Of a stretch of DNA of 64,000 bases, positions 38,070 to 57,256 are shown one piece after another. Source of the stretch: an uncultured bacterium (GTDB lineage Bacteria > Patescibacteriota > Saccharimonadia > UBA4664); contig CAVRET010000001.1 of the NCBI GenBank assembly GCA_963720265.1, positions 197,916-261,915 on the forward strand, read 5' to 3'. Within the stretch, counting starts at the first letter, position 1; every line of letters begins with the position of its first letter. Position numbers and translations under genes: made by a program. Below the pieces are notes generated by a model that was not told the DNA's origin, searched no databases, and saw only the letters and a list, made by a program, of their open reading frames with translations.

Positions 38070-38108
38070 TCTCGGTGTCCTTAATGTTAATAATGCTCTC
38101 GTGAGCTG

Positions 38109-41261: not shown

Positions 41262-43109
41262 TTACGTGCCCCAATGGCTCAGCAGGATTGACAAATCGAA
41301 CACGTTGACCGTGCCGTCGTGATTCAGGTCGGCGGTGGCATTGCTCGTGCCCCAGTCGGTCAACAGAATCGATAGGTCGAAGATATTGACCTGTCCATCA
41401 TCGTTAAGGTCGCCGACTTTGCTCGAAGGTGAACCCGATGGTGTCGGAGTGGGAGTTGGCGTAGCCGTGGGAGAGGCAGTGGAATTGAACGTGCTGCCGG
41501 CGTCCTGCGGCCCAAAATTGTCACCTGAATCTTCAACGTTCGTCAGGCCTGATGTCCATTGCGCCCAGGTCGCGACGTCCAATTGATTAAAGTAGGCGAA
41601 CACCCACGGTCCTTCGTACGTATTGTTTAAGAAGTGGTTGTTCTGGGTATTCGAGATAGCATTGCAGACCGTGTACCCCGGATAAGCAGCCGTAACTGAG
41701 TCTGGAGCAAACAAGCCGTTCATCCCGCAGGCAGTGGATTTGCTGCACTGGCCGCTATAGATTGAGTCACTCGGATTGAATGTGAATTGATTGTTTTGGA
41801 CGGTCACGTTCTGAGTTCGCCACTGACAAAGCTGGTGGTAATCAACAGGTGATGTTTCCGTTAGATTCGAAGGACAGGTATTCGGGCCGGTAGTTTGGAT
41901 CCAGGTGCCAATATTAACACCGCTTGGCGGGGTGAGCGTTCCCGGGTCTTGTCCATCGCCGACATAGCGGTTCGAGTTCTGATAAAGTACAACCCCCGAC
42001 CAGTTATCGTTAAACACGTTGCCCTGGATATTCAGTTCGCCGGCATAGTTACTTGGAACGGTGCTGTCGCCGCCCGACTCGGATATATAAATGGCGCCGG
42101 TTGGGAAGCCCGGATTCGTCGGGCCAGTATAGATGCCGTTGTTAACAAACGTGTTGTCCTCGATATCGGCATTGTAGCTAATCTCGTACATCAGCCCTTC
42201 ACTGCCGTTATTCGAAAAGTAGTTGTTTTGAACGAGAAATCCGGCGTTATCGGTGTCCATCCATAAGCCGGCCGATTCGATATTGTCATGGAAATAATTG
42301 CCGGTTACGGTTACATTGCCATTTTGCCAAAACTTCACACCGCCCTCGATGCCCGACTGCGTTTTTTGGGTGTTATTGAATGACACGTCATTGCCGGTAA
42401 AGGTAATGTTTAGTGCGCCTCCGGTAAACGTGTCTTCGTAAGTCTCATCCACATATGAGTAACCTTGCGCGCCATATTCGCCGTTTTCAGTCAAGCAGTT
42501 GTCCGAAACTACGTTGTCGCCGCCCATCATCATGGCGGCGCCGGGACTGTTATATTGCATGAGGTCGTATTTTTCGGTCCAGCCGTTGTTGCCGTTACCA
42601 TTAACCGAACCGGATGACTGATTAGGAACAAAGTGCTGGATTGTGAGGTACTCAATGGTGACGTTTTGGTCGGACATGTCGTTGTAAGTGCCTACGAACG
42701 CACTGCGGTTAATGTTTTGCCCGTCGAGAATTGCGCCGGGAGCGCCAACATATGTATCGCCGTCGGCCGGCTGGATTTGTGAGAACTCGCCGGCACCTAT
42801 CGTATGCGTGCCAGGCGCGAACCAGTAGGTGGTACTGGCGGTGGAAAAATTAAAGTTGCTGTCATCCCCGGCCGGCACGGTAACAGCACCGCTCGGAGCC
42901 GAGGTGTACGGGTCCTGGTCGCCCGGGAAATTGCTGTCTTCACACCAGCCTACCGGCGGCGAGGTTGGAGCGGCGTTATCCGCGTGGCTGGGTGGCTTGA
43001 TGGTTAGGCCGACGTAGACGGCAAGCAACACGAGAGGAACAGCGGCGACAAATGGCCACGCGTTACGTTTGAGTAGGGTACCGGTGGATATCTTGCTGAC
43101 CCGTGACAT
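41262..43109 (-). CDS. Paralog 3 (615 aa): a different beta-helix N-terminal region with the same PT-linker and dockerin C-terminus.
   Basis: TM anchor. Beta-helix rungs (NNYF, GNVF, NNQF). The C-terminus is TPTPTPTPSGSPSSKVGDLNDDGQVNIFDLSILLTDWG...DLNHDGTVNVFDLSILLSHWG. Confidence 0.7.
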   Translation of the reverse strand: MSRVSKISTGTLLKRNAWPFVAAVPLVLLAVYVGLTIKPPSHADNAAPTSPPVGWCEDSNFPGDQDPYTSAPSGAVTVPAGDDSNFNFSTASTTYWFAPGTHTIGAGEFSQIQPADGDTYVGAPGAILDGQNINRSAFVGTYNDMSDQNVTIEYLTIQHFVPNQSSGSVNGNGNNGWTEKYDLMQYNSPGAAMMMGGDNVVSDNCLTENGEYGAQGYSYVDETYEDTFTGGALNITFTGNDVSFNNTQKTQSGIEGGVKFWQNGNVTVTGNYFHDNIESAGLWMDTDNAGFLVQNNYFSNNGSEGLMYEISYNADIEDNTFVNNGIYTGPTNPGFPTGAIYISESGGDSTVPSNYAGELNIQGNVFNDNWSGVVLYQNSNRYVGDGQDPGTLTPPSGVNIGTWIQTTGPNTCPSNLTETSPVDYHQLCQWRTQNVTVQNNQFTFNPSDSIYSGQCSKSTACGMNGLFAPDSVTAAYPGYTVCNAISNTQNNHFLNNTYEGPWVFAYFNQLDVATWAQWTSGLTNVEDSGDNFGPQDAGSTFNSTASPTATPTPTPTPSGSPSSKVGDLNDDGQVNIFDLSILLTDWGTSNATADLNHDGTVNVFDLSILLSHWGT

Positions 43110-43256: not shown

Positions 43257-43718
43257 ATGACAAAGAAAACAAAAACTTCATCAAGAGCATATCTCAAGAA
43301 ACTACGCCGTCCACCGCGTAGCCGCTTGTTTGTACTGGGTGCACTGTGCGTGGTATTGGTGGCCGGCGCCGGGGTTTATTTCGTCTCCTCAAGCCTGGCC
43401 TTTACGCCTTGCAGCAAAAAGTACGACTTTGGGATGGGTAATACCGGTAGTTGCGTGTCAATTATTCAGCGCACATTACGCAATTATGGGATGACGACCG
43501 GTAGTAATTACTTTAAGTACAGCCCGAAGTCGGTTCTTACGGCCTCGTTTGTCGATAGCATCTTCGGCCCCAATACGCACGGCCAGATAGAGAATTTTCA
43601 GCGCTGGCAGGGCATCCAGGTGGATGGCGTCGTGGGTCCGCAGACCTGGGGCCAGCTGTGCTCCCTTCCGTTCTCGGATATTAGCAAGACCGATCGCTAC
43701 AATGCCTGCGGTTACTAG
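43257..43718 (+). CDS. Membrane-anchored protein with a putative peptidoglycan-binding domain (PG_binding_1-like).
   Basis: TM helix, then ...DSIFGPNTHGQIENFQRWQGIQVDGVVGPQTWGQL, which is the PGBD signature. Confidence 0.6.
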   Translation: MTKKTKTSSRAYLKKLRRPPRSRLFVLGALCVVLVAGAGVYFVSSSLAFTPCSKKYDFGMGNTGSCVSIIQRTLRNYGMTTGSNYFKYSPKSVLTASFVDSIFGPNTHGQIENFQRWQGIQVDGVVGPQTWGQLCSLPFSDISKTDRYNACGY

Positions 43719-43758
43719 TACACCGCTCCGAGCCTAGCCGCCATAGCAATCCCAGCTC

Positions 43759-44565
43759 TTAGTGAAAGATCTTATCCCATTCGGTCGTGAAGGTATTTAG
43801 GACGTCGACTGTCAAGCCGGGCGAGCTCGGGAGCGTCGACTCGGGCGTTACGGCTGACGTCGCCGGTATTGTCGCGACCTGCGCCGACTGTTGGGCTGCA
43901 GGATTCGTTTGGGTTGCAGTAATGATGAGACGGCGCAAAGACGTTCCGATCGGCGTGCAGGTAATAAGCGTGAGGGTGGGAGTGGCTGTTGGGTTAAGCA
44001 CTGCCACGTCGGTTGGCTGAACGACCTGACTGTCGGTGACCGTGTATGTGTACAGGTGCGACTGGTAGGTAATGTAGATCTGATTCCCCTGTTTGAGCTT
44101 GTCGAGCAATGTAAAAATAAACTTGTAACGCCCCAATTGCCACCAGTCCTCAGATGAATGGCCGAATATCGCAACGTTTCCAGGCTGCCCTGGTAGCGCC
44201 GTGCTGGGGTAATGGACAACACCGTTCTGCAGGGCATTCAAGATTGCGTTTTCACTAGGGTTCGACTCGTACACGATTGGCGCGTCTACGCCGATGGCCG
44301 GGATTGTTATGTCTGACGCGGACATGGGCGTTGTCGGTGATACACCGATGCCCTTGTCGGCCGCCGGTGTCAGCGGCGCCGCCATGGACGCGCTTCCATG
44401 TTTCATCAGGGCGTAGCGGAGCTGGATATACAGGAGCGGTGAGTTGAGCAGGAGAACGGCTGCGATAAAGGTAACGATGAAGGTTAGGAGCGGCTTAACG
44501 ATCCATTTGGAGTTCCAATTTACCGGCTCAGGATGGAACGATGCCGATTCGTAAACCTGAGGCAT
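43759..44565 (-). CDS. Sortase (class E/F-like) transpeptidase.
   Basis: N-terminal TM anchor. Catalytic His (VAIFGHS), Cys in LTLITCTP (TLxTC) and Arg (RRLIITA). Directly upstream of an LPPTG protein. Confidence 0.75.
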   Translation of the reverse strand: MPQVYESASFHPEPVNWNSKWIVKPLLTFIVTFIAAVLLLNSPLLYIQLRYALMKHGSASMAAPLTPAADKGIGVSPTTPMSASDITIPAIGVDAPIVYESNPSENAILNALQNGVVHYPSTALPGQPGNVAIFGHSSEDWWQLGRYKFIFTLLDKLKQGNQIYITYQSHLYTYTVTDSQVVQPTDVAVLNPTATPTLTLITCTPIGTSLRRLIITATQTNPAAQQSAQVATIPATSAVTPESTLPSSPGLTVDVLNTFTTEWDKIFH

Positions 44566-44567
44566 TC

Positions 44568-45677
44568 CTAACGCTTCTTAGGGGCAACGATCAACTTTCG
44601 GCGCTGAGTAACCCAGATGTGGAACAGACCGATGGTGACCAGCAAGGCTCCTGCCAGGCTGACGGCGATACCAGTTCCACCGGTCGGCGGCAGTAGGGTT
44701 GAGATGTTTGTCGGTGTCGGGTTCGGGGTTGGTGATGATGGTGAGCCGGACACTGAAATGTTGACCGAGCAGCCTGAGGTCACCGCTGTGGTACCGCCGC
44801 CCGACCCTACAATCTGGAGTGTTGCAGTGTAATTGCCGGGGGTGGTGTAGGTGTGGGTGGTGGTCGTGGCGGGGACTGTGACCTGGTTGTTGTCGCCGAA
44901 GATGTACTGGTATGAACTGATTGATTCACCGCTGGCGCTGCCAGCGCCGGTAAATGTAACCGTGAGCGGTGCGGTACCGGAAACGGTGTCAGACCTCAAG
45001 CTGGTGCAGGCCATTGATACCGAGGGCGTGGGGGTCGGGGTGGGGCCTGAGGTCGGCGGCGGCGTTGGGGTCGGGGTTCGCATTGGCGTCGGTGTGGGCG
45101 TTGGAGTAGGCGAGCTGCAACTGCCCATGCCGGCAAATAACGATCCGCCGATGACACGGGTGTCAGCGTGTAAATACGGAATTTCGGCATAGGCCGGCGG
45201 GAAGTAGTAGTCGATCTGGGTGTTTTGGCAGGTTGGCGGTACTGATACGGTAGCCGTGGTTGACCAGTTTGACTTATCGGCTGGAATGGTGACATTAACT
45301 GCTGCATACTCATATTGCGGTACTGCAGTGTTGTCGTCGCTCTTGCGGTCCCAGGTGCTGGGTACCGTGAAGCTCTCAAGCACTAATGTTTCGGCACTAC
45401 ATAGCGGTTTACCGCCGGCGAGAGAGATGTGTCCGCCGCCGGATCTAGTGAAGCTGGTCTGGTATGAGCTGTATGATGTTGGACTCAAGCAGCTGCTGCC
45501 GCCCGACGAGTTGGCTGAGGCAAACAAGGCTACCCCGCCGAGCATCACGACAAAGCCCATTAAGCTAAGTACGGCTCCGAAGTAAGGATGACGGGGACTA
45601 ATAATTAATGCAGATTTGGGTGATTTTTTTTGTTTAGTTTTGCTCATGCTCTCATATATAGCATAAGTGGAATACAT
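44568..45677 (-). CDS. LPXTG-anchored surface protein: a roughly 170-aa N-terminal domain, a PT-linker, a PKD/Ig-like domain and an LPPTG sorting signal.
   Basis: Linker (PT)n. PKD-like segment SGTAPLTVTFTGAGS...YQYIFGDNN...HTYTTPGNYTATLQI. C-terminus LPPTG, a hydrophobic stretch, then RRKLIVAPKKR. Confidence 0.7.
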   Translation of the reverse strand: MYSTYAIYESMSKTKQKKSPKSALIISPRHPYFGAVLSLMGFVVMLGGVALFASANSSGGSSCLSPTSYSSYQTSFTRSGGGHISLAGGKPLCSAETLVLESFTVPSTWDRKSDDNTAVPQYEYAAVNVTIPADKSNWSTTATVSVPPTCQNTQIDYYFPPAYAEIPYLHADTRVIGGSLFAGMGSCSSPTPTPTPTPMRTPTPTPPPTSGPTPTPTPSVSMACTSLRSDTVSGTAPLTVTFTGAGSASGESISSYQYIFGDNNQVTVPATTTTHTYTTPGNYTATLQIVGSGGGTTAVTSGCSVNISVSGSPSSPTPNPTPTNISTLLPPTGGTGIAVSLAGALLVTIGLFHIWVTQRRKLIVAPKKR

Positions 45678-45790
45678 ATGGAAGCCGCACGTTCACTGCT
45701 GTGATAGTGCCAGGCCGCTTGGCGGCACGCCGGTAAAGCCCAGTGAGATGGATATTGACTGGGCGCATATGTATAAATGAGGCGCTTCAC

Positions 45791-46612
45791 CTAGCCGGTG
45801 AATGAGATGTAGCCGCATCCCCCTATCACTAGTGCGCAGCCGATCCATACGAACGCCCAGAGGCCATTCCTGGCAGTGTCGCCCAGGAATACAATGCCGA
45901 CCAGGATCGGCACGATTGTCTCGGATGACGTCATGACGCCGTTTACAATCGTGGCCAGCGTGCGCTGCAGGGCGGCGGTGAAGAGGTACATACCAATCGC
46001 GCCGTCAGCGATGATGACCCAGATTAGAGGGTTTGCAAACACGTTCCAGAACGGATCGGGATAGACCAACACCCGGCCGATAATGGAAACGAACCCAAAA
46101 GCGGCTCCGCTGAGGACCGCGAGCAATATGAAGCCGAGCCGGCTTTTCAATCTGACAGCAATCGCTCCGGCCGCCACGAAGAAGACCGGTGTTGCGAACA
46201 GGCAACGCATTAGCAGCGGGCTGGCAACTGCCGTGCTTTCGCTGTGTGCGGCCACGGCAATACAGGCCAGGCCGATTACTACTACCAGTGCCGCGATGTA
46301 GGTCGCTCGGCTCAGCTTGCGTTTGAAAAACCATTGCTCGAAGAATGCGGTCATGACCACGCAGCTGGCAATAATGGCCTGCACCAAAAAGAGCGGAAGT
46401 TTATTTACGGCGATTAAGGTAAGAATACCGGCCAGCAGATCTAGTGCAAGGCCGGCGACATACGGGATTTGGCGCAATAGGTGGGTGACGGTCTTGAGGC
46501 TGTATGTTCTGATCGCCTCGGCTTCGTCTGAGCTAGCTTTTTGTAACAGCGCGGCCGTGGCATTGCAAAGCGCGCAAGCAAGGGCTGCTGCGACGGCTAA
46601 CTCTGTGCTCAT
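45791..46612 (-). CDS. DMT-superfamily (EamA-like) transporter.
   Basis: About 10 TM segments, in two EamA-like halves. Confidence 0.65.
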   Translation of the reverse strand: MSTELAVAAALACALCNATAALLQKASSDEAEAIRTYSLKTVTHLLRQIPYVAGLALDLLAGILTLIAVNKLPLFLVQAIIASCVVMTAFFEQWFFKRKLSRATYIAALVVVIGLACIAVAAHSESTAVASPLLMRCLFATPVFFVAAGAIAVRLKSRLGFILLAVLSGAAFGFVSIIGRVLVYPDPFWNVFANPLIWVIIADGAIGMYLFTAALQRTLATIVNGVMTSSETIVPILVGIVFLGDTARNGLWAFVWIGCALVIGGCGYISFTG

Positions 46613-46690
46613 TCCCCTACTTTAGCAAATACGGAGTGATTTTATATTGTCGGTTGGTTTCGCAATATGGCAGTTCTACAACTTAAGCTT

Positions 46691-47056
46691 TCAACTACAG
46701 AGCTGTATAATCTGCCGTGCGGCCATCTCGGGCGTGAAGCTGGATTTTATCCAGGTATCGACGGCGCCCAGTTTCGCGGCCCGGAGTTTATTCTCTGTAG
46801 ATAGCATGTTTGAAAAAATAATGACTCGCGTCTTGATATGCGTTTGCCCGAGCTTGGCCATGAACTCCCAACCATCCATGACCGGCATCATCAGGTCAAG
46901 TAGTATGGCATCTGGCTTAAATTCTCGTACTAGCGCTAGTGCATCGGCGCCGTTAGGCGCATGCTTCACTTCCATACCTTCGAGCTCGAATTTCAGTACA
47001 TACACCTCTGCAAGGATCGCGTCGTCTTCCACTACTAATACTTTCAGTGAGCTCAT
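46691..47056 (-). CDS. Single-domain (REC-only, CheY-like) response regulator.
   Basis: LVVEDD...D(54)LMMP...K, and no output domain. ATGA overlap with the upstream histidine kinase. Confidence 0.8.
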   Translation of the reverse strand: MSSLKVLVVEDDAILAEVYVLKFELEGMEVKHAPNGADALALVREFKPDAILLDLMMPVMDGWEFMAKLGQTHIKTRVIIFSNMLSTENKLRAAKLGAVDTWIKSSFTPEMAARQIIQLCS

Positions 47057-48426
47057 TGCGTATGCCCTGTTGGTAAGACAACCGAAAAAACCGTGCCACC
47101 ACCCTTTTTGGACGTGACTGATATGGAGCCGTGATGGAGCTCGATTACACTGCGGGTGAGATAGAGACCAAGGCCCGTTCCCTCGATGCCTTTTGCAATT
47201 GTTGCCCGTGCTCGCCCGTAGCGGTCGAATATGCCGGGTAAGTCGACGTCGTCAATCCCTTCACCGTCGTCGGTCACTTCGATCGTGAGTTCGCCGGATC
47301 CGTTCCGGCCGGGGGTTTTCTTCACCCTCAGCGTAACCTCGCCACGAGGAGCTCCATATTTAAATGCATTGTCGATTAGATTACTGATTGCCATGTGGAG
47401 TTTCATGGGATCGGCTACGATCCAGGTGGGTTTGGAGGGGGCGTCAACTTTGAACGTCTGGCCCGCAGTCGGATGGTGCTCGGATATCACGGCGTTAATG
47501 ATGTCCACGACGTTTATCCGCGTGGGCGAAATCGTCATCCGACCGGAGCTGGCGCGGGCGGCTTCGAGCAATTCCTCGACAATTCGCAGTTGACGTTGAC
47601 TACTCTCCTCAGCCCGTGCCACCAACTTTTTTTGCTGGCCGTTAAGAGTGCCAACGTCTTCGGCTGCGAGCATGGACAATATGGCTTTTATCCCGGCCGC
47701 CGGAGTGCGCAGCTGGTGGGAGGCCAGGGAGACAAATTGTTCTTTGGTTGATTCAAGCTCATGTTCGGCCTTGATAGCAGATAGGAACAGCCAGTATACC
47801 AGCCCACCGAGCATGAGCATGACTACCAGTGTGACGGCGCTGATCCAGGTAGCATACGCGCCGAACCTGGTAGCTGTAGCGCGGTTCGTCTTGAGCTCAC
47901 TGGCTAACTGAGCGTTGGCTTTATCGATGATTGCGCGCAAGCTGCTCATGTACTGTTCGCCGCGGTTCGTCTCAACAATAGCTGAGGCGGCAGGAAGACC
48001 CTGGCTCGCGTATGCTTGAATGGTTTGGTTAAGCTCGTTGAGTTTGTTTTTTGTTAACGGCACGATTGGTTTTAACTCACCGTCGTTGGGTAAGTTCTTA
48101 CCGGCGGCGATTAATGCGGTTGCCTCTCCTGGGAGGGTCTTGACCGCACGATTATACGGAAGCAAATACGAAGGGTCGCCGGTCAGGAGGTACCCTCTCT
48201 GGCCGGTCTCGGCATTTAGAAGCTGTGAGTAGTAAGCGTTTAACGCTTGTTGCTGGGAAGTTATGCCGATTGATACACGCCGATAGGCAAGTACCTGATG
48301 GATACAGAAAATAATGACAACGGTCGCCATTGTGGCAACAGCCATCATAGCGGCTAGTGCGATAAAACTCTTGCGATCTGTATATTTACGCAGATCTCTG
48401 AACGCTAAACCAAATGCAGTCTGCAA
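47053..48426 (-). CDS. Sensor histidine kinase with an extracytoplasmic CHASE3 domain.
   Basis: CHASE3-like segment (NAETGQRGYLLTGDPSYLLPYNRAV...), H-box LASHQLRTP, HATPase G-boxes. Confidence 0.8.
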   Translation of the reverse strand: MQTAFGLAFRDLRKYTDRKSFIALAAMMAVATMATVVIIFCIHQVLAYRRVSIGITSQQQALNAYYSQLLNAETGQRGYLLTGDPSYLLPYNRAVKTLPGEATALIAAGKNLPNDGELKPIVPLTKNKLNELNQTIQAYASQGLPAASAIVETNRGEQYMSSLRAIIDKANAQLASELKTNRATATRFGAYATWISAVTLVVMLMLGGLVYWLFLSAIKAEHELESTKEQFVSLASHQLRTPAAGIKAILSMLAAEDVGTLNGQQKKLVARAEESSQRQLRIVEELLEAARASSGRMTISPTRINVVDIINAVISEHHPTAGQTFKVDAPSKPTWIVADPMKLHMAISNLIDNAFKYGAPRGEVTLRVKKTPGRNGSGELTIEVTDDGEGIDDVDLPGIFDRYGRARATIAKGIEGTGLGLYLTRSVIELHHGSISVTSKKGGGTVFSVVLPTGHTQ

Positions 48427-48752
48427 CGTTGCCCTCCACCGGTGCGGTACTGGTTTTTATACTATACCAGCATGTACGCTGGTTAGCTCAAGTGTGGGTC
48501 AGTTTTGATAAGCGAAGGCTGAGCCGTGACACACGTGCTATTGGAGGCGGGCCGACCAGCGAATCGCGCGGGATTTCTTGGGCGCGTGGGTTGCCGGCCG
48601 GGTTCGTATTTGTCCGTTCAACCATCATGTCTTCTTGACCCTCGTCGGCCGTAATCCGAAATGAATAGTCTTGGTTAAAATCTGAACAACCAACGGTTTT
48701 TGCGGGCATGCGTCGCCACTTTCGCGTATGAGTTTACTATTGAGCAACTAGC

Positions 48753-48902
48753 TTACGGCCGTGCGCGCCGTCCTGTGATGAGGTTGTAAATAAACACGAT
48801 TATTGCTACCACCAGTAGTAAGTTAATCAGTGCACCGCCAATGTGGCCGATAAGCCCAACTAGCCACAATATGAGCAATATTACAATAATTGTATAAAGC
48901 AT
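48753..48902 (-). CDS. Small membrane protein (49 aa) of the lmo0937 family.
   Basis: Start re-assigned to the ATG at 48902, preceded by AAGGAGA 5 nt upstream. MLYTIIVILLILWLVGLIGHIGGALINLLLVVAIIVFIYNLITGRR matches that family. Confidence 0.6.
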   Translation of the reverse strand: MLYTIIVILLILWLVGLIGHIGGALINLLLVVAIIVFIYNLITGRRARP

Positions 48903-49215
48903 ATGTCTCCTTGAGTTGTTCTCGTTTATGTGATCAGGCAAGCTAAATCCTAGCAGAGACACGGCGGACGTCGCGTTGTTGGAATTCCCATGAAACTCGT
49001 AAAGGCCTAGCATAATCTACCTTTCAAGCGGTTTCGTAAGCGTTATTAACCCCGGCAGCAAGGGAAAATATCGAACATGTCGGAGTTCACTAAAGAGGGC
49101 GACAAAATTGCACCAACATAACTTGGCTAGACGAATATGATAATGACGCAATTCGTCGTATTCTGGACAAGGGATAAGACGCTCAAGAAACCACGTTATT
49201 AGGAAGGTCAAAGCC

Positions 49216-50217
49216 ATGCTCGAAGCGCTGAAGGGCAAGCATGATACGCGGCTCATGTGGACAGAAGCCGCACGAGCCTTCGTTTGCATGCTGCCCATGC
49301 TGGTCGCTAGTGGGCTAGGCAAGACGTCGGTTTTGGTGACGTTGGGACAAGGGGCATTTTTTTATAGCACTATCTTTTTGCCAAAAAAGATCGGCGCACG
49401 AATCATGTTGGGTTCGCTCGTTGTTGCATTGGGTCTTGGTTTTTATTTGATCGGCGGCGCGGTTGCGCCAAACCCGTGGGAAGCAGTGACATTTACTTTT
49501 TTCGTCAGCTTCAACCTGAGCTTCTTGAGCGGATGGAAGGTTGGCGGTCCGTTGGCGCTGACGCTCGTGATGATTTATACGGCCGGACTCAACGCCGGAT
49601 CGCCTGAAAAGGCGGCTACGAATTTTGCATTGTTTGCCGGTGTCCTAACGTGGTGTGCCCTTATCTCGCTACTGCCCTTTTGGACGCCCATAGAGCCGCC
49701 GCCGGTCGATGACAAGCAGGGCAACGGACAACTCGCGGAGCAGGGTTTTCGGATGGGTATTGGTACGGCCATCGCGCTGGGGGTTTCTTACGCGGGTGGG
49801 TTCGGCAAAATTGGGTGGGCGCCAAGCGCTGTCGGCAACGTAGTGCGCTACGATGCGCAGTTGTCGCGCAAACGTGCGTGGGCACGCTTTTACGGCACGA
49901 TTGGCGGTGCGGTCCTGGCGGCGGCAGCACTGGCATTAATTACCAGTGCTACGGTCGTCGTATGGATTGGGGCTTTTTTTGCAGTCCTTAATGGCCTGTT
50001 CAAAAAGACGAAGCTTGGCATGATGCCATTGTTTTACACGGCAACTATCCTGTTGCTCTATAGCGCGAACGATTTGTCGAGCGGGCGCGCCAATATCGTG
50101 ACGCGCGTAGTTTTCAATTTGATTGGGATTACGATTGGCATACTCGTAGTGATCTATCCATTCCCAAGAATCTTGAGAATGATTAATCCGAAAAGTCTGC
50201 CTGAACGCACAGATTAA
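49216..50217 (+). CDS. Polytopic membrane protein (hypothetical; aromatic-acid-exporter-like topology).
   Basis: About 9-10 TM segments. No firm family assignment. Confidence 0.45.
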   Translation: MLEALKGKHDTRLMWTEAARAFVCMLPMLVASGLGKTSVLVTLGQGAFFYSTIFLPKKIGARIMLGSLVVALGLGFYLIGGAVAPNPWEAVTFTFFVSFNLSFLSGWKVGGPLALTLVMIYTAGLNAGSPEKAATNFALFAGVLTWCALISLLPFWTPIEPPPVDDKQGNGQLAEQGFRMGIGTAIALGVSYAGGFGKIGWAPSAVGNVVRYDAQLSRKRAWARFYGTIGGAVLAAAALALITSATVVVWIGAFFAVLNGLFKKTKLGMMPLFYTATILLLYSANDLSSGRANIVTRVVFNLIGITIGILVVIYPFPRILRMINPKSLPERTD

Positions 50218-50292
50218 TGATGCGTTCAGACTTAGTTTGGGTAAGTATTGTCATCCAACTTAGAGATTCCACCGGGAAGTCCCCAGGTTGTT

Positions 50293-50844
50293 TTAGAGGC
50301 TTTCAGCGGCCCTCAAGATGACGTCCGCTACTTCTTTGGGCTTAGAAACCATAATCGCATGTGATCCCTCAAGCTCAGTGATCTCGATATCTCCCTGTTG
50401 TGCAGCCGCACGAATGGCATCAGCTCCAGCGGCTACGTCCTTGGTCGCGACAATTGCCCACGTCGGTACATTCTTCCAGGCGGCAGGACCACATACATCT
50501 GAAAACGCCAAGTCGGCGATGGGGCGCTGTGTGACGGCCATCAACTTCACCTGTTGTTCCGGCAAATCAGATGCAAATACCGCCTGCACTTTATTGGCTG
50601 TTATAACAAATTCAACGCCGGGTTCTTCACCTTGGCCCTTAGGGTATGTCGTTTGGACGAGATTCGGACCTAAGATGCTGTCCTTAGACTTGCCACCGAC
50701 GTCATTCAGAGTTTGACCTTCATTTAAGACAAACGTGTTAAGTATAGGCAGCTTCCTGGTGTGGTATGGCGAATTCTGTGGACCGGCGACGCTGGGTTCC
50801 CAGAGGCAACCGCGCCCAATAAAGAGCAGTAAATAGGAAGCGGT
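50293..50844 (-). pseudogene. Alpha/beta-hydrolase remnant: only the C-terminal roughly 180 codons, with no start codon and no nucleophile-elbow region.
   Basis: The frame is open from the stop at 50845-47 down to 50293, but the only start (GTG 50589) gives a 98-aa C-terminal piece (...VPTWAIVATKDVAAGADAIRAAAQ...ITELEGSHAIMVSKPKEVADVILRA), the typical acid/His end of an alpha/beta-fold hydrolase. This is the left edge of the low-GC island. Confidence 0.45.
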
Positions 50845-50988
50845 TTACGGGTAAGTTCTCGGTGTCTTATCTCCTCTGTTCTTCTCTTTCTCTACCGTGA
50901 ATTTCACCCGCGCATCAGGATTTAGCCGACAAAACAATCTCCTCCGTTTATAGAGGGGATTATTTTAGCCTCTAACTTCTTGATTTTC

Positions 50989-51558
50989 TTATGAATGAAT
51001 CTGCTCGACAGGGATGAAACAGTACGGGGTTGGACTGTTTAGGTAGAAATGGACGTCATTCTGAGCAGCTTCCGGTTCTAAGTATCCTCCCCAGTGATTA
51101 TTGTAGAAGTCATATCCGTATGAGCCACCACTTGTGCAGTTGGACTGCCGGAAATTAGTTCCCCAGCCAGCATCTCCGCTGGTCGGACACTCGTCTAGAC
51201 TGGTATCGGCGTAGCTAGAGCTGTTATAGGCATCGCCTACGCAGTCGCCACCCCACGAAGTGCCGCCCAAGAACTCGATCTCGACGTTACTACCGCTGCC
51301 TGTTGCATAGACATTGAACTGACTGTCGGGCTGTGAATAGGCGTCACTTTCCGTCATTACCCATGGCCCGCCATTCCAGGCGTTAAGGCATGTTTGGGGA
51401 GAGATACTAGTAACACAATAGTCGTAACAGTAATTATCGCAGTTTGCTGCGTGCGCGGGAGCGGCTCCAAAAACCAGTGGAGCTCCTATCGTCAGGAGAA
51501 TCGCACCGGCGATTGGTGCGAGCCTGTCCCTCATTTTGTGCAATACGTTGCGAAACAT
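50989..51558 (-). CDS. Secreted Cys-rich protein, paralog A of an unrecognised family.
   Basis: Start at ATG 51558 (MFRNVLHK...) with a GGGAGG Shine-Dalgarno 8 nt upstream. Signal peptide ends ...APAHA. Shares LNAWNGGPW, GGTSWGGDCVGDAYN, GWGTNF and conserved Cys spacing with 51715-52245. Confidence 0.55.
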   Translation of the reverse strand: MFRNVLHKMRDRLAPIAGAILLTIGAPLVFGAAPAHAANCDNYCYDYCVTSISPQTCLNAWNGGPWVMTESDAYSQPDSQFNVYATGSGSNVEIEFLGGTSWGGDCVGDAYNSSSYADTSLDECPTSGDAGWGTNFRQSNCTSGGSYGYDFYNNHWGGYLEPEAAQNDVHFYLNSPTPYCFIPVEQIHS

Positions 51559-51714
51559 ATCTTTACCTCCCACCTTATTACTAGCATCATAATAGAAAGT
51601 TCAAATAGTTTTCAAGTAAAGATCAGCCGTTTACCAAGCTAAAAATCGGACGTGCTTACAGCCAATAAGGCAGGTGTTGGCCCCACCTGATTGGCTGTAG
51701 AGGATTTTATTTAC

Positions 51715-52245
51715 TTAATTCTTCTCACTCGGATCGTAAATGCCGAAACAGTCCGGAGCGCCGGTTAGGGAGAAATTGTCACCGTTTGTACTTCCACTTG
51801 GTGCGAGATATTCTCCCGTGTGGTTATCTTTGAACTCGAGTGCTCCTTCATCACTACAGTTAATTGCCTTGAAGTTGGTTCCCCAGCCTCCACTGTTGCT
51901 ATTGGTAGGGCAAGGATCGAGACTGGTAGCGTAATTGCCTTGCTCGTTATATGCATCACCGACACACTCGCCACTCCACGACCCGCCGCCGACAAACTCA
52001 ATGTAGGTGTTACCATTACTCAAGGTGTGAATACCGAACTCGTCGTTGGGTACTTCCCCCATAGAAGTTTCGAGATTCGTCCATGGCCCACCACCCCAGG
52101 CATTAAGGCAGCCGACACTATTACAGATCTGCGCGCTGCTGTAATCCGCCAATGCAGGACTCGCTCCAAAAACTATTGATGTACCCGCTGGCAGAACAAT
52201 AGCAGTAGCGATTACTGCAATTTTAGTTCCTATTCTACGAAACAT
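51715..52245 (-). CDS. Secreted Cys-rich protein, paralog B (tandem duplicate of paralog A).
   Basis: MFRRIGTK... signal peptide ending ...SPALA. Mature part is LNAWGGGPW...GGGSWSGECVGDAYN...GGWGTNF...; about 40% identity to paralog A by eye. Confidence 0.55.
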   Translation of the reverse strand: MFRRIGTKIAVIATAIVLPAGTSIVFGASPALADYSSAQICNSVGCLNAWGGGPWTNLETSMGEVPNDEFGIHTLSNGNTYIEFVGGGSWSGECVGDAYNEQGNYATSLDPCPTNSNSGGWGTNFKAINCSDEGALEFKDNHTGEYLAPSGSTNGDNFSLTGAPDCFGIYDPSEKN

Positions 52246-52321
52246 AGTACAAGGAATTAGCCTCTGGGATTCGGATGACTTTCTTTCACATAATGCGCTT
52301 CGTGCGCCCGGTGCTGTATCC

Positions 52322-52831
52322 GTGGAGCTTCTTAACGGTCGACCGAAGAAGGTTCAGTATTTTAGTGACGCCTACTCAAGGCTTCATAAGGGAATTATTG
52401 CGCACGCACAGTCCATCGATGCGACAAACGTTCATACACTATCAGATATGGATTTTGTTTTTATCTGCGTGGACGAGGGCAGGATTAAGAGACTTATTTT
52501 TGATACGCTATTGACTGCTAAGGTGCCGTTTGTTGATGTTGGCATGGGCGTACATCTGGTTGACGGGGCGTTGACGGGCAGTATTAGAACGACTCTGGCA
52601 TCGAGTGCAAAATTTGATCACTTGACAGATAGGATATCTCTATCGGATGAGGCAGTAGAGAACGAGTATTCGGCGAACATCCAGATAGCTGAGCTTAATG
52701 CTCTCAACGCCGCTATTGCCGTTATTAAATGGAAGAAATATTTTGGCTACTATCACGATCATGAGCGTGAGCATAACTCTATTTATGATATTAACGTAAA
52801 CAAGGTGATCAATGACGACATTGCGACCTAG
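52322..52831 (+). pseudogene. E1/ThiF/MoeB-like adenylyltransferase, C-terminal half only (169 aa). The Rossmann GxGxxG N-terminal half is missing.
   Basis: ...NGRPKKVQYF..(20)..DMDFVFICVDEGRIKRLIFDTLLTAKVPFVDVGMGVHLVDGALTGSI matches the MoeB/ThiF segment GRPK...DLVLDCTDN...R.LLN.AC...PLVSG...G.EG. The ORF starts with a GTG only 77 nt from the divergent gene, and no in-frame upstream coding exists. Confidence 0.45.
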
Positions 52832-53153
52832 GCTTGTGGGGACGGCTCCTGATGCGCTCCAGGAAGGTATTTTGTATATCTCGAATGAATACGCCACCGC
52901 GCTTCATCTTTGCTGTTGCGGCTGCGGAAACGAGGTGGTCACGCCATTGTCCGCAAGCGGCTGGAAGCTGACTTACGACGGTAAGCTGGCATCACTTTAC
53001 CCGTCCATTGGTAACTGGAGTTTTCCTTGCCGGTCCCATTATTGGATTAGAAATAACGAGGTGATTTGGATACCAGAATGGGCAGAGCCCCGGCGTGGGC
53101 GGGGTTGGCATACGGTAGCCTCCAAGTGGCTCAGGAGCTTATTCCGTCGTTAG
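52812..53153 (+). CDS. Small Cys-rich protein (113 aa, probable zinc-ribbon) translationally coupled to the E1-like fragment. Possibly DUF6527-like (unverified recollection).
   Basis: Overlaps the E1 fragment's 3' end by 20 nt. [15 protein letters not shown]...[10 protein letters not shown] gives a Cys/His cluster. Confidence 0.4.
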
Positions 53154-53421
53154 GCAATGCTTATCATTGACGCGGGTCTATGGCTCGCAGTTGCTTCTCT
53201 GCGATCACGGAACCCGGTCACAAAGAATTCTGCTGAGCCCTTGGCGGCTCGGGCGGTCTCCGGCCATTATCTGAATACTTTTCAAGATATAGATTACTGC
53301 AGTAAAGACCGGTTACGGAACCCGGTCTTTACTCACCATGATTGCTTTGGCTGGGGCGGTATCCCTCAGGTGGAACCAGATCTATCCAAGTTTACTTGAA
53401 CTGCACAAAAAGCTAGAAGAG

Positions 53422-54168
53422 CTAGGCCTTAGGCTTGAGTGAATCTAGTTCGCTTTCTATCCTCTCGCCAAAGTCCATAATTTTTGAGATGTACGGTTCG
53501 TACTGGCTCCCATCGTATAATTTATGCTTCTTAATTGTCAGTAGGTCTTTGAGCATAGGTGACTCTTCCTGATCTGCTTTTTCCGGTAGCAGATTGTAGT
53601 CTAGATCAAAGTAGTCACTTCTTAGGAGCTGTCGGTTATATATGAGTAGCAAGCATGCCTTAACAATACCTTTGCGATCACGTACTTTTCGCTCTGGCGG
53701 GTCAGTGGGTATGTTGCCTAGTCGGGTACGAATTTCGTGGATGTTTAGCCTCATTCTCTCATCTAGACTCGCGTCCTTGACCGAGAATTCAGTGCGCTCA
53801 AATAGCTGTCCACATATGTATATCCAAGAAAGGAAGGATGGCAAGATGGATTGCGGGGACATTGCGTTTGCGAGGCGAGATCGTATGGGTCCACCGTTCA
53901 GCTCGTCCAAATAGATAATTTGAAAGCCCCATTCTCGCTGCGGTGCCTTTTCGGTCAGCTCATCCTTAAACTTTTCATTGTTAGCTATATCAAAGGAGTC
54001 ATCGACAATACAGATAACATCAATGTCGCTTGTCTCTGGGTCGAAATCACTCCGAGTAATCGAGCCCCAGATGTATAGAGCGAGTATTCCATCTGATTTG
54101 TGCAAGTTGTAAAGGTCAAGCAAGCGCTGTTTTGCGTCGTCAATTGTCTGTGTTTGTAGTTCTGTCAT
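53422..54168 (-). CDS. Nucleotidyltransferase-domain protein (minimal Pol-beta-like NTase fold plus a helical C-terminal domain; ANT/Lnu-like architecture).
   Basis: LALYIWGSITRSDFDPETSDIDVICIVDD is the GS...(D/E)hDh NTase motif. The gene has lower GC than the surrounding chromosome. Confidence 0.6.
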   Translation of the reverse strand: MTELQTQTIDDAKQRLLDLYNLHKSDGILALYIWGSITRSDFDPETSDIDVICIVDDSFDIANNEKFKDELTEKAPQREWGFQIIYLDELNGGPIRSRLANAMSPQSILPSFLSWIYICGQLFERTEFSVKDASLDERMRLNIHEIRTRLGNIPTDPPERKVRDRKGIVKACLLLIYNRQLLRSDYFDLDYNLLPEKADQEESPMLKDLLTIKKHKLYDGSQYEPYISKIMDFGERIESELDSLKPKA

Positions 54169-54271
54169 AAAACTATTTTACCAGGCTGGTCAGCAGCCAG
54201 CTAGGAATCGAACCCCACGCAACAGATAAGGAGCTTCAGTGGAAGTATGAAACACGATGTACATAATAAAT

Positions 54272-54304
54272 TCTGGAAATATCCTATCTGGAAATCTGTT
54301 CCAG
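54272..54304 (+). promoter_or_regulatory. Operator-like repeats upstream of the toxin-antitoxin promoter.
   Basis: Direct repeat TCTGGAAAT x2 (54272-80 and 54287-95), and inverted repeat CTGGAA-N5-TTCCAG (54288-54304). Confidence 0.3.
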
Positions 54305-54345
54305 ATACACTGGCTGGGGCGGCAGGGTTCGAACCAGATGCCGCA

Positions 54346-54374
54346 TTGACGTCATGACGGCATGAAGGTAAAAT
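54346..54374 (+). promoter_or_regulatory. Sigma70-like promoter of the RHH-RelE operon, apparently leaderless.
   Basis: TTGACG, 17-nt spacer, TAAAAT, then the ATG at 54381 six nt after the -10 box. The spacer contains the palindrome TGACGTCA. Confidence 0.4.
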
Positions 54375-54380
54375 GGCAAT

Positions 54381-54611
54381 ATGACTACAAAAGCTACACT
54401 CTACTTAGATTCTGATATGTATAAAACGCTCAAGTTGCGTGCAGTTGAGACCGGACAGTCTATATCTGCCTTAATGAACGAGGCCTTACAGGCGCAGCTG
54501 GGTGAGGATTTAGAGGATATTGAAGCCATTCGCTCACGATTGGCTAAGAATGAAATCCCTCTTACATACGAGTCTGCCTTGCTAGAGCTGAAAAGCAATG
54601 GCTCAATATAG
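54381..54611 (+). CDS. Ribbon-helix-helix (CopG-like) antitoxin.
   Basis: N-terminal beta-strand plus two helices. Overlaps the downstream RelE/ParE gene by 14 nt. Confidence 0.65.
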   Translation: MTTKATLYLDSDMYKTLKLRAVETGQSISALMNEALQAQLGEDLEDIEAIRSRLAKNEIPLTYESALLELKSNGSI

Positions 54612-54858
54612 CGTCGAGATCTTGCCGAGTGTTGTTCGAAAAGACCTAGTGAGACTACCAAAAAGCGATGTCCAGAAAATAATGGGTCGCATAAAGGAAC
54701 TCGGCGATAACCCAAGGCCAGCCTGGTCAAAGAAGCTGTCAGGGCGAGAAGAATATAGGGCAAGGCAGGGAAACTACCGGATACTTTATGTTATTGAAGA
54801 TGCGGTTAGGGTTGTTCAAGTAACCAAAGTCGGTCATCGCAGAGAAGTCTATCAATAG
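54598..54858 (+). CDS. RelE/ParE-family type II toxin.
   Basis: ...YRARQGNYRILYVIEDAVRVVQVTKVGHRREVYQ, the RelE/ParE C-terminal signature. Confidence 0.75.
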   Translation: MAQYSVEILPSVVRKDLVRLPKSDVQKIMGRIKELGDNPRPAWSKKLSGREEYRARQGNYRILYVIEDAVRVVQVTKVGHRREVYQ

Positions 54859-54940
54859 TCAGTCTTTGGCTGAGCAGGCCGGTCTAGAACCTCGCTACCA
54901 TTATTTTACGCTCGAAATGAGACATGAGAACATGATGATC

Positions 54941-54957
54941 CGGTAGTTATAACCGGA
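54941..54957. terminator. Short hairpin CCGGT-agttata-ACCGG between the convergent RelE and MMPL genes. It overlaps the MMPL stop codon.
   Basis: Read directly; coordinates are approximate to 1-2 nt. Confidence 0.3.
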
Positions 54958-57256
54958 CGAGCCTTGGCTTGGGCTTGGGTGGTGCCGGGGCTGGGGGTTG
55001 AGGTGGCTCGGGTAGTCTTGAAAGTTTTGATGGCCACCAGTTCCAGCGGCCGAGCAGGACCGCGATCGAAGGTACAAGCAGCGTACGTACGAAGAAGGTA
55101 TCGAGCAGAATACCAAAGGCGATTGAGAAGCCGATTTGTTCGACTTGGGCATTCCCGCCACCGGACAGGCCAAGCACGGTGAAGGTGCCGGCCAGAATGA
55201 GGCCGGCGGATGTCACGGTGTTGCCGGTAATGCCGATGGCCGTAACCACGGCCTGCCGCAAGGAGGGGCCCGTATGGGTTTCTTCGCGGATACGGGTCAT
55301 GACCAGGATGTTGTAGTCTTCACCGAGTGCCATGGAGAAGATAAAGAGCAGGAAGGGCAGAATGAAATTGAGGCCGTCGCTGGATTTATTTAGATGCACG
55401 AAGACAATCATCGCGAACCCGAGCGTTGCCAGGTAAGACAGGCCAACGCTCGCAATGAGGTACCAGGGTGCGACCAAGCTGCGCAGCAGTATCGCGAGTA
55501 GTATACCAATGATCAAGAGTACGATCGGTACAATAAGTTTTAGATCTGATGTGGCCGTGTGACTAATATCGTATACAAACGCATCTTGGCTAAATACGCC
55601 ATTGGCATTGGCGCCGACATTGTTCGCGACCGTTTGGAGTCGAGTGCGTGCCGCCGGAATGGCGTTGGCGGCAGCGGTTGAGCCAGACGGCCCGGCCGAT
55701 AGGATGGCAAAGAACTGAATGGTTTTGCCGTCTGGGCTGATGAATTGGGAGAGCGACCGGTACAGCTGGTAGGTTTGCGGCGGTACGTGGCTATGGGTGG
55801 GCTGGGTCGCGGGGAGTAGATTTGGAGGCCCGAGCTCTTTGTAGAGTGCGGCCACGGTGGTTTGTGGCAACGTGAAGCCGCCAGGATTTAGCGGTCCGCT
55901 GACTGAAGAGAATTCCGGTGCCGTGGCGAGTTGGTCTGAGGCCTCGGCCACTGGAGTAAGGTTATCCCAGATAGGAGTGTCAAAGCGCAACAGCAGGATT
56001 TGCGGATTGTTACTGGTGGCCGGGAAATGGGCCGCGATTATCTTCGATCCGATCGCAGAGTCGGTACCGGCCGGGGCTGCGGCGTTGCCGAACCCACCCG
56101 TTTTGTAGCCGATCAGGCCAAGTGACAATGATCCCAGCAGCACGATGCCTGCGACCAATGTGATTACCGGATGCCGTATCACTCGTTCGGCGATCCGGCC
56201 CCAGAGTCCCAGCTTGAAGGTGCCTTGCCGGACCTTGGACGGCCAAAAAGCGGCCCGGCCGAAGATGGCCAGGAGCGCCGGCAGCAGGGTGAGGGCGGCT
56301 AGTAAAACCACGGCCAGGCCGATGGCCAAGGCCGGCCCGAGGCCTTTGTAGAACCCGAAGCTGGCCAGGAGCAAACTCAACAAAGCGGAGCCAACGGTGG
56401 CGGCTGAGAACGTGATAGCTTCGCCAACTTTGGACAGCGCCTGGACGACCGCATCTTTGGGTTCGAGGCCCCGGCGCAGTTCTTCACGGGTACGAAAGAC
56501 CAGAAACAGGCCGTAGTCGGTGCCAGCACCGAGCAGGAGCACAATAAGCAAGAGTTGGGTAATAGGTGAAACTTGTACGCCGAATCTTGTCGACTCGGCA
56601 ATTATCGGTCCCGCGACTACGAGTGATAAAGCGGCCGGGACGAGCGTAATGAGCGGTGCCAGGGCTGAGCGGTAGACGAGCAATAGCAGTACCACGATAA
56701 AGATGAGGGTGAAGTATTGAGTGTCGTTGCGGGTCGAATTGTTAGACTGATTCGAGTCTGCCGCCTCAGCTAGTGTGCCGGTGAGGTGGAAGCTAAGACC
56801 GGCCGGCGCATCGACAGTGGTGAAGGTATGGCGCACGTCGGACACGATCGTGAGCGCAGTCGGACTGAAGCCGGAGCCGCTTGAGCCCACCAGAATCTCG
56901 CGCACCTGGCCGTCTTTCGAGGTTGCCTGGTCGCGCACAACGCTGACTTTTTGGACGTGCCGTACCGCCTGTTCGAGGCGAGCGATAGCCGCATTGTCGG
57001 CGGCAGTCAGTGGTCCAGAATCCCGTGAGGCCACAATGGTCGAGGTAGCCAAACCGCTGCCGCCTTGAAACGGGGAATCGAGGTCGGATGCTTTTTGGCT
57101 GGCCGAATTTGCGGGCAGAAAGGCCGAATTATCATTCTTTGTAACGCTTGTCAGTGTCGGCAGGGTTTTGACCGCGAGCGGCACGGCGACTATCCAGAGT
57201 ACGAGGATGAGCCAGCGAAACCGGACTGCGAAGCGAGCGATATTTTTAAAGACCAT
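54947..57256 (-). CDS. MMPL-family (RND-superfamily) membrane transporter.
   Basis: 12 TM segments with two large extracytoplasmic loops and MMPL-domain conservation (GxDYxxF region). A Pro-rich C-terminal tail. Confidence 0.8.
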   Translation of the reverse strand: MVFKNIARFAVRFRWLILVLWIVAVPLAVKTLPTLTSVTKNDNSAFLPANSASQKASDLDSPFQGGSGLATSTIVASRDSGPLTAADNAAIARLEQAVRHVQKVSVVRDQATSKDGQVREILVGSSGSGFSPTALTIVSDVRHTFTTVDAPAGLSFHLTGTLAEAADSNQSNNSTRNDTQYFTLIFIVVLLLLVYRSALAPLITLVPAALSLVVAGPIIAESTRFGVQVSPITQLLLIVLLLGAGTDYGLFLVFRTREELRRGLEPKDAVVQALSKVGEAITFSAATVGSALLSLLLASFGFYKGLGPALAIGLAVVLLAALTLLPALLAIFGRAAFWPSKVRQGTFKLGLWGRIAERVIRHPVITLVAGIVLLGSLSLGLIGYKTGGFGNAAAPAGTDSAIGSKIIAAHFPATSNNPQILLLRFDTPIWDNLTPVAEASDQLATAPEFSSVSGPLNPGGFTLPQTTVAALYKELGPPNLLPATQPTHSHVPPQTYQLYRSLSQFISPDGKTIQFFAILSAGPSGSTAAANAIPAARTRLQTVANNVGANANGVFSQDAFVYDISHTATSDLKLIVPIVLLIIGILLAILLRSLVAPWYLIASVGLSYLATLGFAMIVFVHLNKSSDGLNFILPFLLFIFSMALGEDYNILVMTRIREETHTGPSLRQAVVTAIGITGNTVTSAGLILAGTFTVLGLSGGGNAQVEQIGFSIAFGILLDTFFVRTLLVPSIAVLLGRWNWWPSKLSRLPEPPQPPAPAPPKPKPRLVRL

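Follow-up and report, generated by a model that had tools for sequence, protein, structure and literature searches.

The segment at approximately 50,240–54,940 bp of the 64-kb window analysed here (64,000 nt of contig CAVRET010000001.1 of the Saccharimonadia assembly GCA_963720265.1; all coordinates without another locus name refer to this window) is probably a flexible-genome mosaic, formed by several independent gains and deletions and not by the arrival of one integrating element. This low-GC (guanine + cytosine) patch lies between the genes of a FUSC_2 membrane protein and an MMPL-type transporter, and holds five modules: an alpha/beta-hydrolase pseudogene, a pair of secreted lectin-like paralogs, the remnant of a Type II Bub operon, a nucleotidyltransferase gene and a toxin–antitoxin (TA) pair. 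We propose that the hydrolase gene and the Bub operon, which are divergent, had their 5′ parts replaced by a lectin cassette, or, as an alternative step, that deletions removed the DNA on either side of this cassette. Of the five modules, those of the lectin-like proteins, the nucleotidyltransferase and the toxin–antitoxin would then probably be the working cargo, with the hydrolase and Bub pieces left as debris.

The anatomy of the two truncated genes carries much of this reading. The hydrolase gene, transcribed from the minus strand, loses its 5′ part at about 50.79 kb, and bubBD, on the plus strand, loses its own at about 52.25 kb, so that both cut ends face the lectin cassette of approximately 1.45 kb in between. 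Two 5′-truncated genes that face an internal cassette point to replacement or deletion events within the patch itself. No more than about 10 nt separate the start codon of the second lectin-like paralog (52,245) from the first codon with clear homology to Bub (52,256), which puts the junction at approximately 52,246–52,256. Because this start abuts the Bub remnant and the signal-peptide codons of paralog 2 are conserved in its orthologs, the paralog must have lost its native upstream region. Bub homology that seemed in tblastn to reach further upstream, to 52,145–52,160, was discarded as a low-identity tail antisense to the lectin signal-peptide codons, which are conserved in lectin orthologs. 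A perfect 10-nt inverted repeat was also seen near both truncation junctions (TCCCAGAGGC at 50,798–50,807 and GCCTCTGGGA at 52,260–52,269). A match that long occurred in only 12 of 2,000 shuffles of the two junction windows, these windows having been picked post hoc and one arm lying within conserved Bub coding sequence, and the repeat is recorded here as unexplained.

The compositional anomaly of the patch is real and significant. The GC content of 50,600–54,900 is 47.5% versus 56.2% in the remainder of the window. Outside the patch, 4.3-kb windows (n = 1,021, overlapping) span 51.9–60.9% GC with a mean of 56.3 and a standard deviation (sd) of 1.6, hence the patch lies about 5 sd below them. 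In a 2-kb profile the values are mostly 54–61% across the window and dip to 47–49% at approximately 50–55 kb, and a finer profile gave 44–53% for 50.6–54.9 kb and 54–63% directly rightward. The drop reported in the original prediction, which was made from the letters of the window, is therefore genuine, while the background of about 60% given there was slightly high: the general background is about 56%, and 58–60% GC is confined to the right flank. Two intergenic stretches singled out there as AT-rich, 50,880–51,000 and 51,590–51,720, proved to have 38.8% and 38.2% GC. The sliding GC and codon-usage comparison proposed at that time as a check was carried out as well, and in GC3 and codon fit the patch ORFs separated from the background genes at p of about 1e-7. 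The GC3 (GC content at third codon positions) of the eight patch ORFs (open reading frames) is 0.44–0.59 versus 0.64 ± 0.04 in 43 background genes (Mann–Whitney p = 1e-7), and the synonymous codon fit of the same eight ORFs to the background is poorer, with z = −2.3 to −4.1 (p = 5e-8). The right edge of the anomaly is sharp and falls in the 88 nt between the RelE stop (54,858) and the MMPL stop (54,947). The left edge is diffuse and the maximal low-GC segment extends over 48,011–54,952, owing to a small gene of low GC and to AT-rich intergenic DNA at 48.6–49.2 kb. This second short low-GC spot (48,600–49,200, 43–46% GC) consists of AT-rich intergenic DNA and a gene of an lmo0937-family small membrane protein (48,753–49,013; GC3 0.53), which has the worst codon fit of the background genes; another low-GC spot is situated at 46.6–47.0 kb.

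The gene content listed by the original prediction was recovered in full, namely a hydrolase remnant without a usable start, two tandem paralogs, a nucleotidyltransferase, a ribbon–helix–helix (RHH)–RelE/ParE pair, and an N-terminally truncated ThiF/E1 gene followed by a coupled Cys-rich gene. The last pair is a DUF6527 gene downstream of the ThiF/E1 fragment with a 20-nt overlap, and its description could be refined to the 3′ end of a Type II Bub (6E.2) operon. The truncated gene, bubBD′ (52,250–52,831, plus strand), corresponds to the C-terminal half of the Type II Bub E2–E1 fusion. It matched the NCBIfam model NF004805 (PRK06153) at 2.1e-73 over model positions 201–390 of 392, with 248 bits against a cutoff of 352, and its homologs, which are 45–67% identical, carry DUF6791 and ThiF. 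According to the alignment of these proteins (A1), bubBD′ begins right after the GxGGxGS nucleotide-binding loop, and the DUF6791 (E2) domain is gone. One invariant Tyr survives within the NEYSANIQIAELN motif (Y140, numbered on the 193-aa translation; A1), a mere candidate for the catalytic tyrosine on the crossover loop of E1, which is Y342 in BubBD of E. coli ZDHYS365 (bioRxiv 10.1101/2024.11.21.623953). The bubBD′ frame is open over 193 codons, as was the case in 0 of 20,000 shuffles of the segment, and because it is still free of stops, the truncation of bubBD looks recent. Its earliest possible start is the GTG at 52,322, ahead of which neither a promoter-like site nor a start codon was found, and the DNA upstream is taken up by the lectin-like genes. 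A sequence search of the PDB with bubBD′ gave nothing useful.

The downstream gene, bubE (52,812–53,153, plus strand), encodes a predicted DUF6527 Ser–His protease of 113 aa with a C4 zinc site (Pfam PF20137, 2.5e-25). The conserved residues C34, C36, C38, C73, S65, and H76 are all present (alignment A2), and the C-terminal tail is shorter than in the four relatives compared. In the Type II Bub system, BubA is the ubiquitin-like protein (Ubl), BubBD is an E2–E1 fusion acting via oxyester intermediates and BubE is a Ser–His protease (bioRxiv 10.1101/2024.11.21.623953). Intact relatives of the operon follow the order regulator, BubA (Multi_ubiq Ubl), BubBD (DUF6791 E2 and ThiF E1), and BubE. At the related loci L083 and L084 the Multi_ubiq, DUF6791/ThiF, and BubE genes adjoin a WYL/BrxR or a helix–turn–helix plus M78 regulator. 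No Multi_ubiq gene was detected in the 64-kb window by tblastn with four Multi_ubiq proteins of related loci (the best hit, at E 0.025, was in an unrelated gene), and the window gave no DUF6791 match either. With the Ubl, the E2 domain and the ATP-binding loop all missing, adenylation and transfer are impossible, and this gene content shows the Bub pathway to be dead here. Judged by their sequences, bubBD′ and bubE are thus the 3′ remnant of a Type II Bub operon and not a system, and BubE is most likely a not-yet-decayed orphan. DNA searches against plasmids matched the DUF6527 core only, at about 70% identity to the DUF6527 genes of 54 mostly mobilizable plasmids, which shows that mobile DNA, generally speaking, carries Bub genes; a BubE scan of viral contigs found no match.

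Broken bubBD genes were also seen in unrelated metagenomic loci, one split by a DDE_Tnp_1 insertion (L122, 2,318–5,498) and one by a frameshift (L123, 3,001–4,183), both of which retain the remaining Bub operon genes; at L084 (5,642–6,819) the DUF6791 part was called as a separate gene. The idea that E1 C-terminal proteins of about 165–205 aa are a recurrent natural form was rejected, as the cases examined proved to be the product of the insertion sequence (IS) in L122, that of the frameshift in L123, and partial or alternative-start calls.

The other decayed gene, the hydrolase pseudogene (50,293–50,790, minus strand, the upper boundary being approximate), consists of a 98-codon ORF and its in-frame upstream extension, which together match Pfam Abhydrolase_6 at profile positions 125–217 of 217 only. 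In a phmmer search against 1.84 billion representatives, residues ~25–181 of the 182-residue in-frame translation aligned to approximately positions 90–240 of relatives that are 240–290 aa long. The remnant keeps the C-terminal ~150 residues, the N-terminal ~90–115 residues and a usable start are missing, and the sole start of the ORF is a GTG at 50,589. Kinship with the 311-aa hydrolases encoded beside lectin-family or nucleotidyltransferase genes in other genomes (L082, L124) was considered and dismissed, there being no similarity.

The cassette between the two truncated genes carries two minus-strand genes for secreted Cys-rich proteins, paralog 1 (50,989–51,573; 194 aa, or 189 aa from the ATG; family members P0121–P0233) and paralog 2 (51,715–52,245; 176 aa). 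Both have signal peptides, and because they are only 43% identical, their duplication is taken to be old. The promoter scan found a promoter-like site for paralog 1 at 51,615–51,586; downstream of this gene, a terminator-like hairpin of the minus strand (50,956–50,941) lies in an AT-rich spacer (50,842–50,988, 42.9% GC), and another hairpin (51,657–51,699) follows the stop of paralog 2. Neither paralog matched a family in Pfam, NCBIfam, or PADLOC. Their own family comprises 113 homologs, some of which are named Candidatus Saccharimonadales, with the closest orthologs being 55–67% identical. The AlphaFold2 model of paralog 2, built from 45 sequences (predicted local distance difference test [pLDDT] 84, predicted template-modelling score [pTM] 0.76), is a 12-stranded all-beta domain, and its top PDB matches in Foldseek were all beta-trefoils, that is, lectins and carbohydrate-binding modules (CBMs) represented by Tpp80Aa1, Mitsuba-1, SSA, MytiLec, and CBM92, with E 2e-5 to 2e-3 and template-modelling (TM) scores of 0.55–0.60. 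A beta-trefoil, lectin-like fold is predicted for the secreted paralogs on the basis of this model, and from it we infer a putative cell-surface carbohydrate-binding role for the pair; in these epibionts they could act at the surface or in host binding.

The nucleotidyltransferase gene (53,422–54,168, minus strand, 44.8% GC) encodes 248 aa with a pol-beta nucleotidyltransferase domain (Pfam NTP_transf_2, 7e-6) followed by a helical bundle. Its family is small, with 31 homologs at 55–72% identity and at least one of them in Ca. Saccharimonadales. The AlphaFold2 model (pLDDT 94.6) has two domains and retrieved ANT(4′), AAD(9), and AadA by Foldseek (E 2e-5 to 9e-4, TM 0.42–0.58), Hailong HalB being a weaker match (full range to 5e-3), thus a two-domain ANT/AadA-like fold is predicted. 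The protein scored 17.4 bits against a cutoff of 350 with the NCBIfam model ANT_4p_I, which places it outside the curated ANT family. A PDB sequence search returned a minimal nucleotidyltransferase domain only (E 0.019), and PADLOC gave weak PDC-S09 matches at the N-terminus only. Genes of this family were found at four loci (53,422–54,168 here; L124, 8,001–8,732; L125, 1,432–2,163; L126, 2,439–3,179), with different neighbours in all four, and have 43–45% GC in loci whose GC content is 45%, 47%, 54%, and 56%, the last value belonging to the present locus. The GC content of the gene stays constant regardless of that of the locus, as would be expected if the gene moves between lineages. A search of the gene against plasmids gave no match. 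Together with the composition and codon usage of the patch, this host independence supports a probable horizontal origin.

A gene of the lectin family occurs in another Saccharimonadales metagenome-assembled genome (MAG; L082, 10,001–10,543). Both the lectin-like and the nucleotidyltransferase families turn up in other MAGs amid varying neighbours, which would make a large share of the patch flexible genome of the lineage and not a foreign defence island. Two Saccharimonadales MAGs were also seen to share a block of genes for DHH, CysS, an AI-2E transporter, GT4, GT4, and a 311-aa hydrolase (L082, 1–9,000; L124, 1–7,000), after which the cargo differs, being a lectin-family gene in L082 and a nucleotidyltransferase gene in L124. 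The end of this block looks like a variable spot in the Saccharimonadales lineage.

The fifth module is preceded by a divergent intergenic region (54,169–54,380), in which a promoter-like site (54,346–54,374) is located just upstream of the antitoxin gene. The 76-aa RHH antitoxin (54,381–54,611, plus strand) matched Pfam RHH_1 at 3.9e-5 and NCBIfam antitoxin_RelB_like at 4e-6, and the 86-aa toxin of the RelE/ParE superfamily (54,598–54,858, plus strand) matched Pfam ParE_toxin at 5.7e-9 and, weakly, TIGR02385 RelE_StbE. The two genes overlap by 14 nt and the pair looks intact. Type II TA modules act as addiction elements that hinder the loss of neighbouring DNA. By analogy, the pair may help the block to persist.

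Several points weigh against the proposed mosaic. No relative is close enough to provide an empty site, and the order and number of the events were deduced from the anatomy of the locus. The modules are similarly low in GC3, which also fits a single donor, and the left compositional boundary is diffuse. Furthermore, the functions assigned to the lectin-like proteins and the nucleotidyltransferase come from predicted folds with 10–18% identity to solved structures, and the activities of the genes in the patch are predictions.

The similar composition of the modules leads to the alternative put forward in the original prediction, that is, that one integrative island of 4.7 kb was brought in whole by a mobile element and then decayed in place, the integrase of the element having been lost or being located beyond the window. 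The low GC and deviant codon usage are contiguous over all eight ORFs, the patch ends sharply on the right at the stop of the MMPL gene, islands typically contain a TA module such as the one seen here, and the Bub operons of relatives adjoin resolvases or recombinases and occur on plasmids. The search for mobility signals, on the other hand, gave little to support such an element. No integrase or transposase family was detected by Pfam among the genes at 43.4–63.5 kb, in line with the earlier statement that no integrase or IS is visible, nor any other recombinase family in the same interval. ARAGORN found 0 tRNA or tmRNA genes in the 64 kb, and under relaxed settings it gave scattered low-score calls, none of them at 54,190–54,340; Rfam, at a permissive E ≤ 10, returned nothing over 54,100–54,420. 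Two sequences that by eye resemble a T-arm, GGAATCGAACCCC (54,205–54,217) and GGGTTCGAACC (54,325–54,335), were considered as tRNA-fragment att sites and rejected, both programs being blank there. The search for flanking direct repeats, which had been proposed as a check, gave only chance-level matches of 17–18 nt. A 17-nt direct pair (50,959/54,900, 82% identical) and an 18-nt inverted pair (53,194/54,830, 89% complementary) were discarded as boundaries, since about one such pair is expected by chance per 9 kb. DNA searches against a phage collection gave no match. The locus shows one of the four classical island features examined, deviant composition and codon usage, and lacks the other three.

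Two further observations argue against a single arrival: the lectin-like and nucleotidyltransferase families occur separately and in different contexts in other Saccharimonadales MAGs, and the cut ends of the two truncated genes look towards a cassette between them, a sign that the patch was rearranged internally. With no att-like repeat, tRNA, or recombinase, and with truncations that face the internal lectin pair, the claim of a single mobilised island that lost its element could not be upheld, and we consider this scenario unlikely. Of the broader description of the patch as a horizontally acquired, partly decayed accessory or defence island, the deviant composition and the two decayed genes are supported. 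The lectin-like and nucleotidyltransferase families belong to Saccharimonadales, and PADLOC recognised no defence system over the patch.

The second alternative is that the region is native and owes its low GC to relaxed selection, AT-biased drift, and gene-specific amino-acid composition. The affiliation of the lectin-like and nucleotidyltransferase families with the lineage, the gradual left boundary with the low-GC spots nearby (48.6–49.2 and 46.6–47.0 kb) and the presence of two pseudogenes would all agree with it. Against this, the intact ORFs (the nucleotidyltransferase, the TA pair, and the lectin-like pair) also have GC3 values of 0.44–0.54 versus 0.64 in the background, and the nucleotidyltransferase genes have about 44% GC in loci of 45%, 47%, and 54% GC alike. 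Moreover, Bub and TA genes are known mobile cargo, as illustrated by the DUF6527 genes on 54 plasmids, and the still open frame of bubBD′ means that the decay has been brief. A native origin therefore appears distinctly doubtful, more so than the whole-island scenario.

Two bolder proposals, taken jointly, were given a slender chance: that the paralog pair represents an undescribed Saccharimonadales host-attachment lectin family moving as a cassette, or that the orphan BubE was retained for a new stand-alone role. A still less probable version is that bubE, by itself or together with bubBD′, has been kept as a working module, for example, a Ser–His protease acting on Ubl conjugates made elsewhere. 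The intact catalytic Ser and His and four Cys of BubE and the stop-free 193-codon frame of bubBD′ speak for it. Against it stand the lack of bubA and E2 in the window, the lack of a promoter-like site or start before the GTG at 52,322, the shortened tail of BubE, and the fact that short E1 fragments elsewhere are products of IS insertion or frameshift, with the remainder of the operon present, and not a recurrent architecture; we regard this possibility as very improbable.

Finally, a chimera of different organisms' DNA produced by assembly or binning, which the metagenome-type assembly and the abrupt composition change at 54.9 kb might suggest, has a negligible probability, because a Logan contig (L081), an independent assembly of run ERR11523669, is 100% identical across 43,422–55,061 and covers the left flank, all internal junctions, and 114 nt of the MMPL gene, hence the internal junctions are not assembly artefacts. 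The gene calls stored with this contig miss bubE and the RelE/ParE toxin gene, that is, automated annotation overlooks the two genes most informative for reading this locus.

The genes on both sides of the mosaic have near-normal to normal composition. On the left, the FUSC_2 gene (49,216–50,217, plus strand; Pfam FUSC_2, 1.2e-12; GC3 0.61) is followed by a hairpin at 50,192–50,238 (inverted repeat I13), and its best relatives show 66–73% amino-acid identity. On the right, the stop of the MMPL-type transporter gene (54,947–57,256, minus strand; GC3 0.66) marks the sharp patch edge, and the protein shares 64–67% identity with proteins from Candidatus Saccharimonadales MAGs and about 50% with actinobacterial ones. 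The nearest genomes and metagenome contigs reached through MMPL and FUSC_2 (55–73% amino-acid identity) have no neighbours in common with the locus, and exact-protein look-ups of BubE, MMPL, and P0124 found none on record. Within the patch, bubE and the nucleotidyltransferase gene converge on a spacer (53,154–53,421) that contains hairpins at approximately 53,172–53,188 and 53,305–53,333 and an 80-codon ORF (53,157–53,399) without a family match. The spacer also harbours an 18-nt direct repeat, 89% identical, at 53,202–53,219 and 53,310–53,327, the copies of which are 108 nt apart and contain ACGGAACCCGGTC; the second copy belongs to the hairpin AAAGACCGG...CCGGTCTTT. The repeat may represent a terminator or else a short repetitive element.

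Some features of the rest of the window are worth recording. An AdoCbl-II riboswitch (4,969–5,043, minus strand; 46 bits, E 6e-8) is located at the 5′ end of the ORF at 2,670–5,045 (minus strand), which encodes a 791-aa protein without a Pfam match at 1e-5 and is followed by a ClpB-like AAA_2 gene at 928–2,673. Three large proteins with a terminal dockerin type I domain (34,757–37,765, 38,109–41,192, and 41,262–43,109, the last also with a beta-helix) are encoded next to a PG_binding_1 protein, a sortase, and a PKD-domain protein, forming a cell-surface cluster (34,757–43,109 and 43,759–44,565). The window also encodes HemD (uroporphyrinogen-III synthase), an Nramp transporter, TatC, a P-type ATPase, and transporters of the major facilitator superfamily and the ATP-binding cassette type (13,985–15,112, 5,771–7,129, and 18,908–19,819), a repertoire that is rich for a genome of the candidate phyla radiation (CPR) type. 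In the present analysis, best hits are the sole basis for assigning the window to Saccharimonadales.

All in all, the patch is real but ordinary, and mildly novel only in its two uncharacterised families and its intact-looking orphan bubE; it adds little new and opens no long-standing question. What it does show is that a Saccharimonadales-like genome once held a Type II Bub operon that has since been lost, which extends the known occurrences of Bub in the CPR. CPR hosts such as Ca. Yanofskybacteria already figure in the table of Type II Bub operons of the source study, and no Saccharimonadales-like host was found in the searched part of that table (bioRxiv 10.1101/2024.11.21.623953). The locus also adds to the Bub operons seen broken by IS insertion, frameshift, or deletion. 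If the orphan BubE had a role, it could be that of a stand-alone enzyme in an epibiotic Saccharimonadales cell, for example, in cleaving Ubl conjugates made by the host or by phages. The secreted beta-trefoil proteins and the ANT-like nucleotidyltransferase, as two uncharacterised families in Saccharimonadales MAGs, may merit a look, and the relevance of both to an epibiont living on antibiotic-producing actinomycetes is speculation.

Compared with known systems, the locus resembles the Type II Bub (6E.2) operon in having bubBD followed by an overlapping bubE, whose product would carry the C4 zinc site and the Ser–His dyad, and differs from it in lacking BubA, the regulator, the E2 domain, and the E1 nucleotide-binding loop. 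The secreted paralogs share the predicted 12-strand beta-trefoil with lectins and CBMs such as MytiLec/Mitsuba, SSA, CBM92, and the N-terminal domain of Tpp80Aa1, and have signal peptides; unlike these, they are 10–18% identical to the solved structures and display a conserved Cys pattern specific to their own family. The nucleotidyltransferase, with about 250 aa, has the predicted pol-beta domain and C-terminal helical bundle of ANT(4′), AAD(9), AadA, and Hailong HalB, but is 12–17% identical to these proteins and has no HalA-like partner. The TA pair has the layout of a type II module of the RHH and RelE/ParE type, with two small overlapping genes, the antitoxin first and a promoter-like site upstream, whereas its proteins score modestly, below the NCBIfam equivalog cutoffs. 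As a whole, the patch differs from the genomic islands described in Patescibacteria (PMC12455944) in having no definable mobility genes or island boundaries, and resembles them in being an accessory block of deviant composition within a small genome of the CPR type. Most individual transfers run between Patescibacteria (mSystems 2025, PMC12455944), and this mostly intra-Patescibacteria traffic matches the Saccharimonadales affinity of the lectin-like and nucleotidyltransferase families of the patch.

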